Position numbers and translations under genes: made by a program. 64,000 nucleotides of DNA, taken from NCBI GenBank assembly GCA_014379585.1, contig JACMLN010000098.1, positions 1 through 64,000 of the forward strand, written 5' to 3'. Below the pieces are notes generated by a model. That model was not told where the DNA came from. It did no database searches and saw nothing but the letters and a program-made list of their open reading frames with translations. This DNA is from Gloeobacterales cyanobacterium ES-bin-313. GTDB lineage: Bacteria > Cyanobacteriota > Cyanobacteriia > Gloeobacterales > Gloeobacteraceae. This document shows positions 29,089 through 36,517 of this stretch, one piece after another (positions within the stretch are counted from its first letter, which is position 1; each line of letters opens with the position of its first letter).

Positions 29089-29829
29089 TTGATGCCGCGA
29101 GTGCTTGTAGTTGACGATGACCCAGCCATACTTGAGCTAGTGTGCGTCAATCTCGAAATGTCTGGTTATGAGGTCATGGAAGCCCCAGATGGCACCAAAG
29201 GCCAAGCCCTAGCTCTGCAACTGCGACCAGATTTGATTGTGCTTGACTTGATGCTTCCCCAAGTGGATGGGTTGACGATCTGCCAACGCCTGCGCCGCGA
29301 CGAGCGCACCGCTGAGATTCCGATTTTGCTGTTGACAGCCCTGAGCCAGACCAAGGATAAGGTCGGTGGCCTGAATGCTGGAGCAGACGATTACCTAACC
29401 AAGCCTTTTGAGCTTGAAGAACTACTAGCACGGGTGCGTGCCCTGCTGCGCCGCACTGACCGGATTCCCCAAGCAGCCAAGCACGGCGAGATTCTTTCCT
29501 TTGGGCCGATAACACTCATACCAGAGCGTTTTGAAGCCGTCTGGTTCGGTAAGATCATCAAGCTTACTCACCTCGAATTTGAACTGCTCCACTGCCTCTT
29601 GCAGCGCCACGGCCAGACTGTTGCCCCAAGCGAAATCCTCAAAGAAGTTTGGGGATACGACCCAGACGATGACATCGAGACGATCCGAGTTCACATTCGC
29701 CATCTGCGTACCAAGTTGGAGCCAGATGCTCGTCATCCCAAATTCATCAAGACCGTGTATGGTGCAGGCTACTGCCTGGAGATCCCGATGGATTACTCCC
29801 TACCACAGATGGCAGAGCCAGCCGAATAA
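29089..29829 (+). CDS. OmpR-family response regulator
   Basis: REC domain (VVDDD ... LDLMLP) plus winged-helix C-terminus. Confidence 0.85.
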
Positions 29830-29912
29830 AGTTCACTACAATAGGAAAGCGCTCGCTGCCCTGTGCACCTTTGCTCGTGCCAAACCATACCGTGCTTCTC
29901 GATGTAGTTTAG

Positions 29913-30926
29913 ATGCTTGACGAACATGAAATTTTAAACTGTCTTCCCTGTGGGGTTGTCATTACCGACCGAGAAGGCAGGATCTTGGTCTGGAACCGAG
30001 CCATGTCGAGCCTGAGTGGCTTATCGGCAGAAGAGATGGAAGGAACGCCGCTCCAGCAATGGCTTCCAGACATTGATCGTAGCCATGCAAGCATTGTTTT
30101 GCCTCACCGAGACCAATGGCTCGACGTGCGTGTCCATGGCCAAGATTTTAGTGGTGGTTGTGCGTGGACCTTTGTACAGGAGGTGCGACAAGAATTGGAT
30201 CAAGCCCAAGCAGATTTTGTCTCAACAGTCTCCCACGAATTGCGTACACCGCTCACCAGTATTAAGGGGTTCATCGATACGCTGTTGCGATCCGGCAACC
30301 AACTGAGCGAGAAGCAGCAACATCGTTTCCTCAAGATTGCCAAAAACCAAGCGGATCGGCTCACCCGTCTCGTCGAAGACATTTTGACGGTTTCTCGGAT
30401 CCAATCGGGCAGACTCAAGAATGTTCCCCAGCGCCTCGACTTGGCTGAGGTCATCGATCTTGTGCTAGAGAGTCTCTCCCAAAAATATGAAGCACGGCGA
30501 ATGCACATGCACTTGCCAAACGGTTTACCCGAAGTGTGGGCTGACCAAGATCGCTTGGAGCAAATTCTCACCAATTTGATCGACAATGCCCTCAAGTATT
30601 CTGAGAAAGATACCTGCGTAGATATCTATGCAAAACTCGATCCTGAGGATGAGAGTGTGCTCTGGATCTCCGTGCGCGATCAAGGCATCGGCATTCCCGA
30701 AGTGCATCTCGACCAACTGTTTAACCGCTTTAGTCGCATCGATTCTCCCCTCACCCGTGAGCGCGAAGGAACAGGACTTGGGCTCTATATTACAAAATCC
30801 CTCGTTGAAAGCCTCGGTGGCACTATCTTGGTCGAAAGCCAGTTCGGTCATGGCAGCATTTTTACTGTCTGCCTTCCTGCAGCGCAGCATCTTCCTATGC
30901 ATCTAGAGGAAGGGCTACATGCCTGA
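29913..30926 (+). CDS. cytoplasmic PAS-domain sensor histidine kinase
   Basis: PAS-like N-terminus, H-box SHELRTPL, and N/G1/G2 boxes GTGLGLYI. Confidence 0.85.
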   Translation: MLDEHEILNCLPCGVVITDREGRILVWNRAMSSLSGLSAEEMEGTPLQQWLPDIDRSHASIVLPHRDQWLDVRVHGQDFSGGCAWTFVQEVRQELDQAQADFVSTVSHELRTPLTSIKGFIDTLLRSGNQLSEKQQHRFLKIAKNQADRLTRLVEDILTVSRIQSGRLKNVPQRLDLAEVIDLVLESLSQKYEARRMHMHLPNGLPEVWADQDRLEQILTNLIDNALKYSEKDTCVDIYAKLDPEDESVLWISVRDQGIGIPEVHLDQLFNRFSRIDSPLTREREGTGLGLYITKSLVESLGGTILVESQFGHGSIFTVCLPAAQHLPMHLEEGLHA

Positions 30927-31872
30927 ACCTGTGGGTGAGGAACTAGAACTCGATCTGCGCAGCGATCTCAAGTCTCGACAGGGCAAATCTGCCGTTCTGT
31001 ATATCGACTTGCGCAATTTTCGACTATACAACCAGCTCTATGGCCGAGTCGCGGGGGAACAAATGATTCACACCCTTGCTGGAGCTATTGAGCATTGCCT
31101 AGACGAAGCTGGAACGATACACCGCCTCGGTGGACATGAGTTTATTGCTGTGACGAATAATGATCATTCTGAACAATTGGCTCAGGATATCTGTCATCGT
31201 TGGGATCGCGATTCCCTTGGTTTCTACACCCGCCAAGATCGTCAACGTGGCTTTTTAGTCGGTATAGACCGCCACGGCATTGGCAGACGCTGCTCCCTCG
31301 TGGAAGTGAATATCGGGATCATAGACACAGAGCATTATCAGACCTTATCGGATATTTTCTCAGCAGCGTTGCGAGCAAACTTGGTTGCCCAGACCAGCAA
31401 AGGCAGCAGTTATGCCTGCGTTCCTCTCGACACTGACCAACCACCCGAAAAACCAACTCCTCACCGTGTCCTCGTCGTCGAACCGGATGCAGCACTTGCT
31501 TACTTGTTGCAAACCACCCTGGAACTGCGGGGGTACGCAGTGGCAGTAACCAGCTCTGGGCAAGAAGCCTTTAAGTTAGCCATTACGAATCCACCAAGGG
31601 TAATTGTTCTTGACTTGTTCACGTCAGATTTGCCTGCGGGCCCTTTTTTGTGCCAAGAATTGCGCCGTCAACCGGAACTAAAAAATACGCTGCTGATCGT
31701 GGCGGCAACCAACGCAGACAGAGAAGATGCCCTGGTCGCTGGTGCGGATCTGTTCGTCCCTAAACCCTTTGAACTCGACGATCTGTTGGGCTGGATCGAT
31801 CGACTGGTGGAAGAATATGCAAAAACGGTTGACCTGCCGAGCAGCAACCGTTTTCGTGGATTTAGGCGTTAG
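30919..31872 (+). CDS. degenerate GGDEF-like (GGHEF) domain fused to a receiver domain
   Basis: YIDLRNFRLYNQLYG ... RLGGHEFIAV ... REC with VIVLDLF; 8-nt overlap with the kinase. Confidence 0.6.
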   Translation: MPEPVGEELELDLRSDLKSRQGKSAVLYIDLRNFRLYNQLYGRVAGEQMIHTLAGAIEHCLDEAGTIHRLGGHEFIAVTNNDHSEQLAQDICHRWDRDSLGFYTRQDRQRGFLVGIDRHGIGRRCSLVEVNIGIIDTEHYQTLSDIFSAALRANLVAQTSKGSSYACVPLDTDQPPEKPTPHRVLVVEPDAALAYLLQTTLELRGYAVAVTSSGQEAFKLAITNPPRVIVLDLFTSDLPAGPFLCQELRRQPELKNTLLIVAATNADREDALVAGADLFVPKPFELDDLLGWIDRLVEEYAKTVDLPSSNRFRGFRR

Positions 31873-31874
31873 TT

Positions 31875-32159
31875 TTACTTCAGCGTACGTACACTGATAT
31901 CGCCCAGTACTGTGCACTGGCAAGCAAGGCGGGCAAGGGGGTTATCCTCTGCCATGACATCGAGCATGTCCCGCTCGATATCGGTGACGGGGCTGATATT
32001 TTCGATGCCAAAGGTAACCTCGATCAAGCAGGTACCACAAGCCCCGTCTCGGCAGCCAAATAGCAGCGAGATCGGGTGCTCGTCACAGATGTCCGTAAGG
32101 GTCTGATTAGCCTCTACTTCGACAGTTTTCTGGTCGTCTTCAAATTGAATGGTGACCAT
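31875..32159 (-). CDS. [2Fe-2S] ferredoxin
   Basis: CRDGACGTC ... C cluster; 94 aa. Confidence 0.7.
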   Translation of the reverse strand: MVTIQFEDDQKTVEVEANQTLTDICDEHPISLLFGCRDGACGTCLIEVTFGIENISPVTDIERDMLDVMAEDNPLARLACQCTVLGDISVRTLK

Positions 32160-32161
32160 GG

Positions 32162-33400
32162 TTAGACGGAGAGGGTTTGCTCAAATCGCTTGAAGGACTG
32201 GATGTTGCTCTTGATGGCGGTGGAGAGATGTGCCTTGGCCATGATCCGCAGTTCGCGGTTGATGGGCCAGAGGTAATCGACTTCTTCCATGTACTTGCGG
32301 TTATCGCTGAGCGCTTTTTCATGGTAGCGTGCGGCCACATGGAAACCTTCGTGCTCTGCACAGAAGCATTGACGCACCGCTTGAAGCGCTTCACGGCGAT
32401 CCATCCCAAACAGGGGTGTCTGAAGCATCCGGTAGACGAGAGGGATATAGTTCGAGTCGTCAGTGAAGATCCCTGGAACTGCACCAGAGAGTGTCTGCAT
32501 GGTGCGCTGTACCCCAAAGATCCCGACGTTGGAAGCAAAGATTTCCATGGCACTCGGCTTTTTGAAATCTTTGTAGAGATCGTGGGAGATCAGTTGGGAA
32601 GTCGCTGTGTGGAACGCTTCGTCGAGGTAGTGGAAGTGAGACACCGCTGTTGGGGCAGGCACAAAAGCACCCGCCTTTTCGAGTTCTTGGCAGTACTGGG
32701 AGTGACGATACTCTTTGACCTTCAGTTGAATGTTGCGCAGGCCGCGTACGGTATAGTACTGGCTCGCCACAAACGGTGAAACACCGACTTGTACGGCGTA
32801 GAACTGAGCAGGAGAATTGCGAATGAATGACCGTGCGCCCTTCTGGGGATGGATCAAGGCGGCTTCAACATAGTTGGGCATCGGACGATCAAAGATCAAG
32901 TCGCCAAGCAGAGCCATTTCGGTCTGTTGGCCAATGGTACGGAAAGCTTCGACGTGGGCGCGCTCTTGAGAGGTCTCGACATCAAGTTCGCGGCACAGGG
33001 TCTCGTAGCCACCGAGGGGATAGAACGCACCACAGGTCAATTGGTTGTAGACCATCGTGGTCACTTCGCCACCGATGGAATAGTTGTAGAAACAAACCCA
33101 GTACAAGTGATTGAGGGCTTTCTTTTGGGCTTCGGAAGCCGCTGTGTAGACGGGGCTACCGTAGAGCAGTGAAAATTCTGGTTGTACCCAGAAGTGGTCG
33201 CTGTGATCCGCGTAGCTAAAACTGTTTTGCAGTTCGACCATCCGCTCAGTAAAGTTTGAGCTGACGTTGCGCTTGTAATTGACTTCGATCAGCTTAAGAT
33301 TCTTTTTGCCATGGACAATGCCATCGGATAGCGTTCCTGTACTTGGTTTTTTGGCGGCGATTTCATGAGTGTCTAGCATAATAGTTGCTTTCCTGATCAA
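32162..33400 (-). CDS. putative ferritin-like diiron oxygenase (AurF-like family?)
   Basis: Repeated E-x-x-H motifs (ERAH, EAFH ... H, AEHEGFH) in an all-helical 412-aa protein; flanked by reductase and ferredoxin genes. Confidence 0.4.
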   Translation of the reverse strand: MIRKATIMLDTHEIAAKKPSTGTLSDGIVHGKKNLKLIEVNYKRNVSSNFTERMVELQNSFSYADHSDHFWVQPEFSLLYGSPVYTAASEAQKKALNHLYWVCFYNYSIGGEVTTMVYNQLTCGAFYPLGGYETLCRELDVETSQERAHVEAFRTIGQQTEMALLGDLIFDRPMPNYVEAALIHPQKGARSFIRNSPAQFYAVQVGVSPFVASQYYTVRGLRNIQLKVKEYRHSQYCQELEKAGAFVPAPTAVSHFHYLDEAFHTATSQLISHDLYKDFKKPSAMEIFASNVGIFGVQRTMQTLSGAVPGIFTDDSNYIPLVYRMLQTPLFGMDRREALQAVRQCFCAEHEGFHVAARYHEKALSDNRKYMEEVDYLWPINRELRIMAKAHLSTAIKSNIQSFKRFEQTLSV

Positions 33401-33480
33401 GGTGAAATAAGGCGGACATCACAATGCAGATTCCAATTTATCAGAATGATTATGAATATACCTGTTCGTGGTGCGCACTT

Positions 33481-34686
33481 TTATGAAAAGTTTTCAAAAA
33501 AAGTGGTGGGTTTTTTGAAAATCTCCGGTGTGAGTCGGCCAATTAGTGGATTTAAGACGGCATTGTAGTAGAGCAGATCTGCAGCTTGGGCGATTGCCCA
33601 TCCAGCTGTGCCATAAAGTTCTTGGCCATCGACGAGGGCAACCCCATCGAAAGCACCGAGGGAGAGGGCAATGCGATCCACCGAAGGCACAAAGGCAATG
33701 GTGGATTGTCCTTGTTGTTCCGCCAGAATATTTGTGGCGACGACCTCGGCGGCTCGAAGAGCGAGTTGCCCGCAGGGAGGATAGTTTTTTTCTCCATCCC
33801 TCGGCAAAATACTGTCCCCAACTGCATAGACGTAGGGGTAATCGACCATGCGACAATCGCTGCCAACTCGCAAAAACTGTTGGGCATCGCGCAGCCCCTC
33901 CGGCTCCTCCTCGACGCGCACGGGCTGGGTACCACCCGCCCAAAGCAGGGTTTGGGTCGCCAATTCTTCGCCACCATCAGGCCCATCTAAGATGGCCATA
34001 TCGGCTCTGACCCTTTTGACTTGGGTATCGAGCTGAACAATGACGCGGTGGCGGCGAAACCACCGCAAGACCCAGTCTGAAACACTGGCTGGCCACTCTG
34101 GAAGCAAGCGATCACTGCGCTGGACAAGGTGGATCTGGATCGCATCGGCGAGGCCACCGTAGCGTTTGCGCCAACGCCGAGCCAGATGCACCAACTCAGC
34201 CGCTAACTCGACCCCCACCAATCCCCCACCGACGATGACCCAGCGCAGCAGCTTGAGGTCACATTGTTCGCGTTTGAGTGCCTCCTCCAAACTCGACCAG
34301 TGGTTAAGGATCTGCTGAAGATCTTCGAGTGTATATAGAGGTAGGCTGTAGCGAGCCGCACCAGGTACGCTCAAGCGCCCCTCAGAGCCAACAGCAAGAA
34401 CGAGGCGATCAGCTCTGAGGGTTTCGCTGTCAGTTTCAACTTCCAATGCCTCAAGATCGATGCGTAGGGCATTTGCCTTGATGTGGCGCACTTTGCTGTC
34501 GAGCAAGCGCGAATAGGGGAGGCTGACATCTCGCAGAGGCACGCGACCAGCAGCAGCAGCGACAAGACGCGGTCGCAAAATGTGTTCGCTCCTCGGCTCG
34601 ATCAGGGTAACTTGCAGATTGTGTGCAGCTAAGGTCTGGACGACCCGCAAACCAGCGTATCCCCCACCGATAACAACTACGTGCAT
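33481..34686 (-). CDS. NDH-2-like FAD/NAD(P)H pyridine-nucleotide-disulfide oxidoreductase
   Basis: Two Rossmann GxGxxG motifs (VVIGGGYAG, IVGGGLVGVE). Confidence 0.75.
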   Translation of the reverse strand: MHVVVIGGGYAGLRVVQTLAAHNLQVTLIEPRSEHILRPRLVAAAAGRVPLRDVSLPYSRLLDSKVRHIKANALRIDLEALEVETDSETLRADRLVLAVGSEGRLSVPGAARYSLPLYTLEDLQQILNHWSSLEEALKREQCDLKLLRWVIVGGGLVGVELAAELVHLARRWRKRYGGLADAIQIHLVQRSDRLLPEWPASVSDWVLRWFRRHRVIVQLDTQVKRVRADMAILDGPDGGEELATQTLLWAGGTQPVRVEEEPEGLRDAQQFLRVGSDCRMVDYPYVYAVGDSILPRDGEKNYPPCGQLALRAAEVVATNILAEQQGQSTIAFVPSVDRIALSLGAFDGVALVDGQELYGTAGWAIAQAADLLYYNAVLNPLIGRLTPEIFKKPTTFFENFS

Positions 34687-34812
34687 CAGTACCGCCTGTC
34701 ATCGGAAAGACTCTGTAGTCCTATCTTAACCAGTTCATCGCAGTGGTGGGCTGTTCTGTCGTTGCCTCTACCTAAACCGCGCTAAAATCTTGTAGTCCAA
34801 ACAGACATCCCT

Positions 34813-35730
34813 ATGCAGTCTTCCAGCACATCTTCACCTTCTCGGACAGTCGCTACCGTCGTGGCCTGTGCGCTCTTGGCTGTAGGAACCTACCACGTCA
34901 TTCAGGAGTGGTTAGGCGCTTGGTTTAGTTATGGTACCTACAGTGCTCTGTTTACCTATGGCGCGATTGGTATTCCAGCCATCTTTTATTTAACCTACAG
35001 TAAGGCCAAAGCGCTTTCGGCATTGCCTAATCCATGGATGTACCAGCTGCTTGGGCTTGCCTTTGTCCTGTTGGGGTGCGGACTAGGGATGTTCAGTCCA
35101 TTAAAAGATATTCGATTTGCGGGTGTTTTTGTCGCCGTGGTCGGCGTTGTGATTGTCCAGTGGGGACTCTTTGCTCCACGCCTGCTCTGGCAAGAACTTG
35201 CGCTTTTCTTGTTAGTGATCCCTTTTCCAATTGTTTTCGCGGCCACCCATAATTCTTTCTTTCAAGGGATTACCGCCCACGGTGCAGCTTTCATGCTTTG
35301 GTATGGTGGCATTCCCGCTTTTTCTGATGGCGTATTCATCAATATCAACGAGCTGCAAAATGGGGCATTGCACACCATTAACGGTGTCCAAGTGGCAGAA
35401 ACTTGCTCAGGTACTGCCATCGGTTTCACTTTGACCTATCTAGGCTTTCTGATTCCTGTCTTACTGCCTGTGGGGTTCAACCGAAGACTGGTTCTATCGA
35501 TGATCGGCCCAGCAATGGCGATCACATTCAACACGATGCGGGTCGCATTTTTGCTTTACGTGAAAACCTATGTGAGCGAGGATGCCTTCGCGTTTTGGCA
35601 CGAAGGCAACGGTCGCCTGATCTATTCCTTTTCAACCATGCTGGTTTATGGGATCATTGCGCTTATCGTGATCTGGCCCTCTTTGCAGCCCCAAGCGCCA
35701 CGTTCTATGGCAAAACAAAAAGCAATCTGA
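34813..35730 (+). CDS. exosortase (cyanoexosortase family) transpeptidase
   Basis: Eight TM helices; catalytic VAETCSGTAIG and FNTMRV Asn/Arg motifs. Confidence 0.65.
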   Translation: MQSSSTSSPSRTVATVVACALLAVGTYHVIQEWLGAWFSYGTYSALFTYGAIGIPAIFYLTYSKAKALSALPNPWMYQLLGLAFVLLGCGLGMFSPLKDIRFAGVFVAVVGVVIVQWGLFAPRLLWQELALFLLVIPFPIVFAATHNSFFQGITAHGAAFMLWYGGIPAFSDGVFININELQNGALHTINGVQVAETCSGTAIGFTLTYLGFLIPVLLPVGFNRRLVLSMIGPAMAITFNTMRVAFLLYVKTYVSEDAFAFWHEGNGRLIYSFSTMLVYGIIALIVIWPSLQPQAPRSMAKQKAI

Positions 35731-35740
35731 ATTTGGAAAT

Positions 35741-36517
35741 ATGGAAAACGAAACTGTTCAACCGAAAGTCAATCCCTCCGTCCCTTTGGAAGAAAATGTC
35801 ACTTTCGTCCTTCCACGGCCTCTACCAACCGCGCTCTTCTGCGTCGGTCTGGCTCTTTTTCTGGGTTTCCTCTCGGATTGCTCTTCTTTGTTGCCCTTAA
35901 ATGTGGCCAATATTATTTGGCAAATTAATTCTTTAGAGCGTGTGTTCAACGAAGCAAGCATTCCGATGTTGAGCTTTATTCTCATGCTCAGCGGTGTCTG
36001 GCTCAACAATGCAGTAAACGGCACCAAAAATAAGATTTTGGGTTGGATCTGCGGCCTAATCAGCCTTGTTATTGGAGTCTCTTTGTTGCTGGCAGTGCCT
36101 CTCTATCTTAAAAATATCAACTTTGCCTATCGTATCAAGTCAGAAGAAATTCTCAACCAGCGCAAAATTGATAAACCTGCACCGAGAAGTGAACTAGCAG
36201 AAAAATACGATGCAAGTCTGAAGGAACTCTCCGACACTGTCTACAGAAATGTCCTTCGCTTTGGCACCAATGGGGTCGTGATGGGTGGTGCACTTGTGTT
36301 ACTTGGCATCTTTGGGATTCGCCAAACCCGCGATCGTGCTGATGTTGGGTTTACCTGTGTAACCTGTGGAAGCAGTAAAGTCCGCCTCTCTCAGATGAAC
36401 GCTAACGAGCAAAGCCTCGCGACATTTACCCGGATTCACACCTTTCGCTGTGAAGACTGTAGCCGGCGCTTCCGCAAATTTTCGATCACAGGTAAACCTT
36501 TTCCGTTCTTCTTTTAG
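35741..36517 (+). CDS. exosortase-associated membrane protein with a C-terminal Cys4 zinc-ribbon-like motif
   Basis: Four TM segments; CVTCGSS ... CEDC; 10-nt gap after the exosortase; AT-richer than its surroundings. Confidence 0.4.
   Translation: MENETVQPKVNPSVPLEENVTFVLPRPLPTALFCVGLALFLGFLSDCSSLLPLNVANIIWQINSLERVFNEASIPMLSFILMLSGVWLNNAVNGTKNKILGWICGLISLVIGVSLLLAVPLYLKNINFAYRIKSEEILNQRKIDKPAPRSELAEKYDASLKELSDTVYRNVLRFGTNGVVMGGALVLLGIFGIRQTRDRADVGFTCVTCGSSKVRLSQMNANEQSLATFTRIHTFRCEDCSRRFRKFSITGKPFPFFF

Follow-up and report, generated by a model that had tools for sequence, protein, structure and literature searches.

A CylC-like diiron halogenase homologue and a co-inherited [2Fe-2S] ferredoxin in a Gloeobacterales cyanobacterium

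CylC, BrtJ, ColD/E, NocO/N and the microginin halogenase make up the cyanobacterial dimetal-carboxylate halogenase family (PMC8406957). Such CylC-type halogenases matter as catalysts for selective C-H chlorination. In the definition of Wang et al. (2025), the family is marked by nine conserved residues, and the motifs QExxH and HxxDExxH account for seven of them. For NocO, all nine residues are essential, the cofactor was identified as diiron by Mossbauer spectroscopy, and chlorination of a dodecanoyl chain tethered to an acyl carrier protein (ACP) was reconstituted with ferredoxin, ferredoxin reductase and NADPH (PMC12101540). Two features were described as setting the family apart from the N-oxygenase AurF: a proposed displacement of one carboxylate, which would open a chloride site, and the replacement of the second-sphere Asp of AurF by Gln (PMC12101540). 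These halogenases are hard to express, lack a solved structure and have no defined native redox partner (PMC12101540). Table S3 of Eusebio et al. (2021) includes a homologue from a Gloeobacter metagenome-assembled genome with 34-47% identity to characterised enzymes (PMC8406957). Here we describe a CylC-like gene and an adjoining ferredoxin gene in a 64,000-nt stretch of DNA, referred to as the window (positions 1 to 64,000 of contig JACMLN010000098.1), from Gloeobacterales cyanobacterium ES-bin-313. The locus had originally been predicted to encode an oxygenase system of unassigned substrate. Instead, its central gene is a further member of an already described halogenase family with known substrates (CylC-like, PF28091) and not a new oxygenase system.

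Direct reading confirmed three consecutive open reading frames (ORFs) on the minus strand, encoding a flavoprotein, a central protein (32162..33379 from its likely start codon) and a ferredoxin, with gaps of 80 nt and 2 nt between the longest forms of the ORFs. The central protein is homologous to 346 database clusters, and the named ones are nearly all cyanobacterial. PF28091 (PF28091.1) was found on the identical database protein P0001 and on all 120 of the homologues listed. The assignment and its name, 'CylC-like', were taken from precomputed database annotations, and a literature search on the accession 'PF28091' gave no match. A genome scan found relatives in the genomes of 331 species, and the best 80 loci were examined. 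In tblastn comparisons, the window protein matched loci of Moorena bouillonii PNG (L050; 40%, E = 7e-105), Microcystis LEGE 91341 (L061; 40%, E = 1e-101) and Synechocystis salina (L057; 42%, E = 3e-103), in each case over residues ~25-404. From their gene content, we take these loci to be the columbamide, microginin and bartoloside clusters, respectively.

All nine active-site residues of the CylC family are present in the window protein (E105, Q138-E139-R-A-H142, E223 and H250-Y-L-D253-E254-A-F-H257), and all nine were invariant in a 26-sequence alignment (A1). The ExxH motifs to which the original prediction had drawn attention are real and invariant in the family. Q138 precedes the first ExxH and occupies the place of Asp135 in AurF. 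Structure prediction, one of the checks proposed at the outset, gave a ferritin-like four-helix-bundle fold closest to AurF and CmlI. The suggestion of a ferritin-like, AurF-like diiron oxygenase was thus right about the predicted fold and the metal-site signature but not about the family. Among the Pfam and NCBIfam profiles searched here, the sole match of the central protein was a sub-threshold one to the AurF family (PF11583), covering residues 67-128 only, at 13.1 bits against a gathering cutoff of 29.6 (E = 0.054). Together, the sequence and the predicted fold identify the central protein as a member of the CylC-like diiron halogenase family.

The ferredoxin gene (31875..32159, minus strand) follows the CylC-like gene directly. 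The junction, TAA-cc-ATG, was read directly and leaves 2 nt (32160..32161) between the stop codon of the CylC-like gene and the start codon of the ferredoxin. The same spacing was found in L081 and L088, and the two genes are likely to be translationally coupled via this junction. As originally annotated, the product is a 94-aa plant-type [2Fe-2S] ferredoxin, which we propose as the electron donor to the diiron centre. The Fer2 model (PF00111) gave it 47.9 bits (cutoff 21; E = 1.3e-12), and its four cluster ligands (C36-x4-C41-x2-C44-x35-C80) were invariant in its subfamily (alignment A2). This subfamily is discrete, with 23 proteins at 53-98% identity before a drop to 39%, and at least 10 of the 23 apparently share a contig with a CylC-like match, judging from matching sizes.

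Ferredoxin genes were placed by tblastn and ORF mapping. The CylC-like gene is followed immediately by a Fer2 gene in the window and in L081, L088, L002 and L001, all from Gloeobacterales. The same order was found in L082/L083, which have an unrelated carbonic-anhydrase/pilin neighbourhood, and in clusters with nitronate monooxygenase (NMO) and polyketide synthase (PKS) genes (L006, L007, L009, L010, L015, L023 and L090). In the sulfotransferase cluster L092, Fer2 follows a truncated contig-edge ORF that corresponds to a CylC-like C-terminus. The ferredoxin-paired loci fell in two neighbouring clades in a neighbour-joining tree, and the ferredoxin was confined to those two clades; the tree was midpoint-rooted with no outgroup, and we make no claim on which clade is ancestral. 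Comparison of the window with Moorena shows higher conservation of the ferredoxin (67-73% identity) than of the enzyme (49%). We conclude that the ferredoxin is a genuine, co-inherited partner of one branch of the CylC-like family. In the 2021 survey, a ferredoxin receives no more than a brief mention, for NMO-type clusters (PMC8406957).

At the best 80 loci, neighbouring genes were grouped by clustering of ORFs and their labels were checked with Pfam. A PP-binding ACP was found directly upstream of the CylC-like gene at 60 of the 80 loci, a type-I PKS with ketosynthase, acyltransferase, ketoreductase and ACP domains (KS-AT-KR-ACP) directly downstream at 56, and an AMP-binding ligase upstream at 45. 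A protein resembling ketoacyl-ACP synthase III (KAS-III) with a partner protein (dialkylresorcinol type) was upstream at 13 loci, and a PfaD/NMO-like protein was also upstream at 13. These architectures are those catalogued by Eusebio et al. (PMC8406957). It should be noted that the 'DarA-like' label given to neighbour cluster C9 is not backed by Pfam; it derives only from the presence of this cluster alongside the KAS-III-like gene and from the published bartoloside architecture. The usual context of the family, which is typical but not strictly defining, consists of a FAAL (fatty acyl-AMP ligase) plus an ACP upstream and a PKS downstream, or of DarAB, type III PKS or Rieske partners. None of this was seen in the window, where Pfam and NCBIfam identified an exosortase/HpsJ pair on one side of the locus and a two-component/GGDEF cluster on the other. 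The window CylC-like gene is unusual in lying outside any FAAL/ACP/PKS or dialkylresorcinol cluster.

By analogy with characterised members of the family, 32162-33379 and 31875-32159 probably form a two-gene module, in which a CylC-like diiron halogenase homologue and its cognate [2Fe-2S] ferredoxin would chlorinate a fatty-acyl chain; we hold this reading with moderate confidence. Established here are the family membership, the complete published metal-site signature, the ferritin-like predicted fold near AurF/CmlI and the co-inheritance of the ferredoxin with one branch, and the mechanism beyond these parts follows the models of CylC and NocO. Photosystem I or a general reductase of the cell would reduce the ferredoxin, which would then take the diferric cofactor to the diferrous state. 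Activation of O2 would give a high-valent diiron species, which would abstract hydrogen from an unactivated sp3 C-H of the fatty-acyl chain, most likely carried on an ACP encoded elsewhere. Rebound of the iron-bound chloride to the carbon radical would form the C-Cl bond.

The locus resembles the CylC, NocO, BrtJ and ColD-ColE systems in its Pfam family, its nine signature residues and the ferritin-like fold predicted for the window protein, and a ferredoxin-type electron supply matches the published in vitro need of the CylC/NocO group for ferredoxin, ferredoxin reductase and NADPH. Unlike those systems, the window gene is cluster-free (no FAAL, ACP, PKS or DarAB genes in 64 kb) and has its own adjoining ferredoxin. 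Unlike the FAAL-ACP-PKS type halogenases, its product is a short form (405 aa) without an insertion of ~60 aa. Also comparable is the 'nitronate monooxygenase-containing' class of CylC biosynthetic gene clusters of Eusebio et al. (2021), which comprises a PKS, PfaD/NMO, a CylC homologue, a ferredoxin and an ACP (PMC8406957). Members of this class fall in the neighbouring tree clade, share the order of CylC-like gene and Fer2, and have ferredoxins 65-73% identical to that of the window. However, they lie within PKS clusters that also encode an ACP and a condensation enzyme, whereas the window pair stands alone in a housekeeping/signalling neighbourhood. The pair is also distinct from two other ferredoxin-dependent diiron systems. 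The central protein shows 7% identity to the soluble stearoyl-ACP desaturase, which uses a plant-type ferredoxin, and is not a member of that family. Likewise, the pair does not belong with YfaE-NrdB of E. coli, which serves as an analogy only, since the ferredoxin scored 24.6 bits with the YfaE model (NCBIfam NF007985) against a cutoff of 75.

Several observations weigh against a chlorinating two-gene module. The clade of the window protein has no characterised member, and the nine residues alone cannot separate halogenation from hydroxylation or desaturation. When representatives of the ACP, FAAL, PKS, DarB-like, DarA-like and NMO neighbours were compared with the whole window by tblastn, only matches with E > 0.4 were obtained. 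An ACP-tethered substrate is thus an assumption for this enzyme, because the window holds no FAAL, dedicated ACP, PKS or DarB-like gene. The pairing with ferredoxin is not absolute: L084, L004 and L019, in the same clade, have no ferredoxin, and a ferredoxin of the subfamily (58% identity) stands at L091:7001-7288 with no CylC-like gene within 7 kb. As to co-transcription, promoter and terminator scans of 31700-34900 gave counts not above those of shuffled sequence, and the sole promoter-like site overlaps a start codon.

The upstream gene (33481..34686, minus strand) encodes an NDH-2-type FAD/NAD(P)H flavoprotein of 401 aa that adjoins the pair and is judged to lie outside the module. As originally described, it has two GxGxxG motifs (GGGYAG and GGGLVG), and it matched Pyr_redox_2 (PF07992) with E = 1.5e-36. 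The best PDB matches were the type II NADH dehydrogenase (NDH-2) of C. thermarum (4nwz, 4e-29), YjlD, S. aureus NDH-2, Ndi1 and FSP1, and no ferredoxin reductase was found in the PDB at E <= 1e-5. By sequence, the flavoprotein is a member of the NDH-2 family. Close orthologues, at 46-92% identity, are confined to Gloeobacteria-type organisms, and the next matches fall to ~32%. The G. kilaueensis orthologue occupies the same place, divergent from the exosortase-HpsJ pair, but the gene after it encodes prephenate dehydratase, and neither a CylC-like nor a Fer2 gene is close by; the same absence was seen around the orthologues of Aphanocapsa lilacina and Anthocerotibacter. None of these three organisms was among the best 80 of the 331 genome matches to the CylC-like protein, which excludes a close homologue only. 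A role as ferredoxin reductase was considered and rejected on distribution and similarity. We judge the flavoprotein to be a lineage backbone gene of Gloeobacteria rather than a dedicated reductase, a role for which we found no support, and it may pass electrons indirectly via the redox pools of the cell.

These results bear on the original proposal of a self-contained three-component operon, in which electrons would pass from NAD(P)H through the flavoprotein and the ferredoxin to an AurF-like N- or C-oxygenase. The three genes do lie in order on the same strand with short gaps in the window and in L081, a contig of 6542 bp appears from matching sizes to hold homologues of all three, and the flavoprotein weakly matches NCBIfam models for ferredoxin reductases of oxygenases (HcaD, 4e-13, well short of the cutoff). 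However, its solved relatives are NADH:quinone enzymes and not ferredoxin reductases, and neighbourhood comparison showed that the CylC-like gene and the ferredoxin are kept together while the flavoprotein is not. It is adjacent as in the window only in L081, whose entire neighbourhood is syntenic. Two opposite-strand genes separate it from the pair in L088, in L002 it is 8 kb distant and on the opposite strand, and it was not found in L082, L084 or the remaining 70+ of the 80 loci. Moreover, the AT-rich gap upstream of the CylC-like gene has a separate AGGA ribosome-binding site, and the sub-threshold PF11583 score speaks against an AurF-like enzyme. The link between the CylC-like protein and the ferredoxin thus survives, but the three-gene chain is improbable, and it was set aside on two counts that had been named beforehand as refuting it, namely the placement of the protein in a described family and the lack of co-conservation of the trio. 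A true arylamine N-oxygenase of the AurF/CmlI type is more improbable still and can be largely discounted. CmlI and AurF are the top structural matches, PF11583 gives its partial match, and one homologue bears the UniRef name 'p-aminobenzoate N-oxygenase'. Yet the structure-based identity is only 10-12%, no PDB sequence was matched by phmmer even at E <= 10, the family-specific Gln stands in place of Asp135, and the conserved context of the family is fatty-acyl (FAAL/ACP/PKS), pointing to substrates of a different class from arylamines.

A less remote alternative, though still an unlikely one, is that the window clade, with its stand-alone CylC-like genes from Gloeobacterales and relatives, comprises non-halogenating diiron hydroxylases or desaturases that act with the ferredoxin on primary-metabolism acyl-ACP or membrane lipids; such an activity might be ancestral to that of the halogenases. 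Two points argue against it: none of the nine signature residues has been lost, the halogenase-type Gln138 and Glu223 among them, and in the midpoint-rooted tree the clade groups with the NMO-PKS clade rather than outside the family. More broadly, we speculate, as a minority view, that the stand-alone Gloeobacterales pair acts on acyl-ACP of fatty acid synthase or on membrane lipids, yielding chlorinated lipids in an early-branching cyanobacterium or retaining an ancestral hydroxylase or desaturase. If so, the ferredoxin inherited with the enzyme would supply the native redox partner that has long been sought, and might make enzyme preparations for structural work more tractable. Under the favoured reading of a halogenase homologue with a cognate ferredoxin, the locus offers two leads of modest value: a branch of the family whose [2Fe-2S] ferredoxin is dedicated and inherited with the enzyme, minimal two-gene versions such as that of the window among them, and short-form, cluster-free members in Gloeobacterales. 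Both could be of use for co-expression, for structural studies and for work on the evolution of the family.

The longest form of the central ORF (32162-33400, minus strand) starts at a TTG and encodes the 412 aa originally reported. More probably, the gene starts at the ATG at 33379 and encodes 405 aa. We prefer this start because the identical protein P0001 has 405 aa, all homologues align from this Met, and AGGAAAG lies ~10 nt upstream. The flavoprotein stop codon is 80 nt from the TTG and 101 nt from the ATG, a junction that was also read directly. The G+C content dips to 0.454 at 33000-33499 (flanks ~0.52-0.57), a stretch that takes in the 5' end of the CylC-like gene together with the AT-rich gap of 101 nt; this gap holds TATATT/CATAAT-like sequences that might be the promoter of the CylC-like gene.

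Long-form family members (450-490 aa, FAAL-ACP-PKS type) carry an insertion of ~60-70 aa between core helices (alignment A1 columns ~180-265), which is missing from the window, NMO and dialkylresorcinol clades; its site corresponds to window residues ~170-187. The only internal low-confidence region of the structural model (predicted local distance difference test, pLDDT, <50 at residues 175-187) corresponds to this insertion loop. Tandem CylC-like pairs are common in PKS-type clusters (L014, L040, L041, L045, L046, L049, L050, L059, L063 and L070), and in L005 two copies that belong to different clades are separated by 5 kb. In L084, the lone CylC-like gene (65% identity, without ferredoxin) lies 4.5 kb from a FA_hydroxylase (sterol-desaturase family) gene (L084:10934-11824), a protein type tied to 'Rieske-containing' CylC clusters in the 2021 survey (PMC8406957). 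In L092:1-5515, the edge-cut CylC-like C-terminus and Fer2 are followed by genes for an adenosine 5'-phosphosulfate (APS) kinase, an unknown protein, a sulfotransferase and an O-methyltransferase and then by another CylC-like gene, a set that would fit a chlorinated, sulfated lipid. P0001 and P0194, identical or close to the window protein, are labelled 'Anaerolineae bacterium' and 'Gemmatimonadaceae bacterium' in GenBank, while the name in nr begins 'Gloeoba...', and L063, a contig with FAAL, ACP, two CylC-like genes and PKS, is labelled 'Candidatus Gracilibacteria'. All three are probably mis-binned cyanobacterial contigs.

Downstream of the pair, a convergent gene for a degenerate GGDEF (GGHEF)-receiver protein (30919-31872) ends 2 nt from the ferredoxin stop codon, as direct reading confirmed. 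It belongs to a signalling cluster on the plus strand (29089-31872) that also encodes an OmpR-type response regulator and a PAS histidine kinase, the GGHEF domain being N-terminal in its own protein. The block of CylC-like, Fer2, GGDEF/receiver, histidine kinase and response regulator genes (followed in part by RapZ and CofD) remains linked in the window, L081 and L088, with part of it also in L002, although the signalling part is convergent with the halogenase pair. On the other side, an exosortase (PF09721, with weak matches to cyanoexosortase models) and an HpsJ-family protein are encoded on the plus strand (34813-36517), divergent from the flavoprotein, and the order of exosortase, HpsJ and flavoprotein genes is kept in Gloeobacter kilaueensis (L086) and L081.

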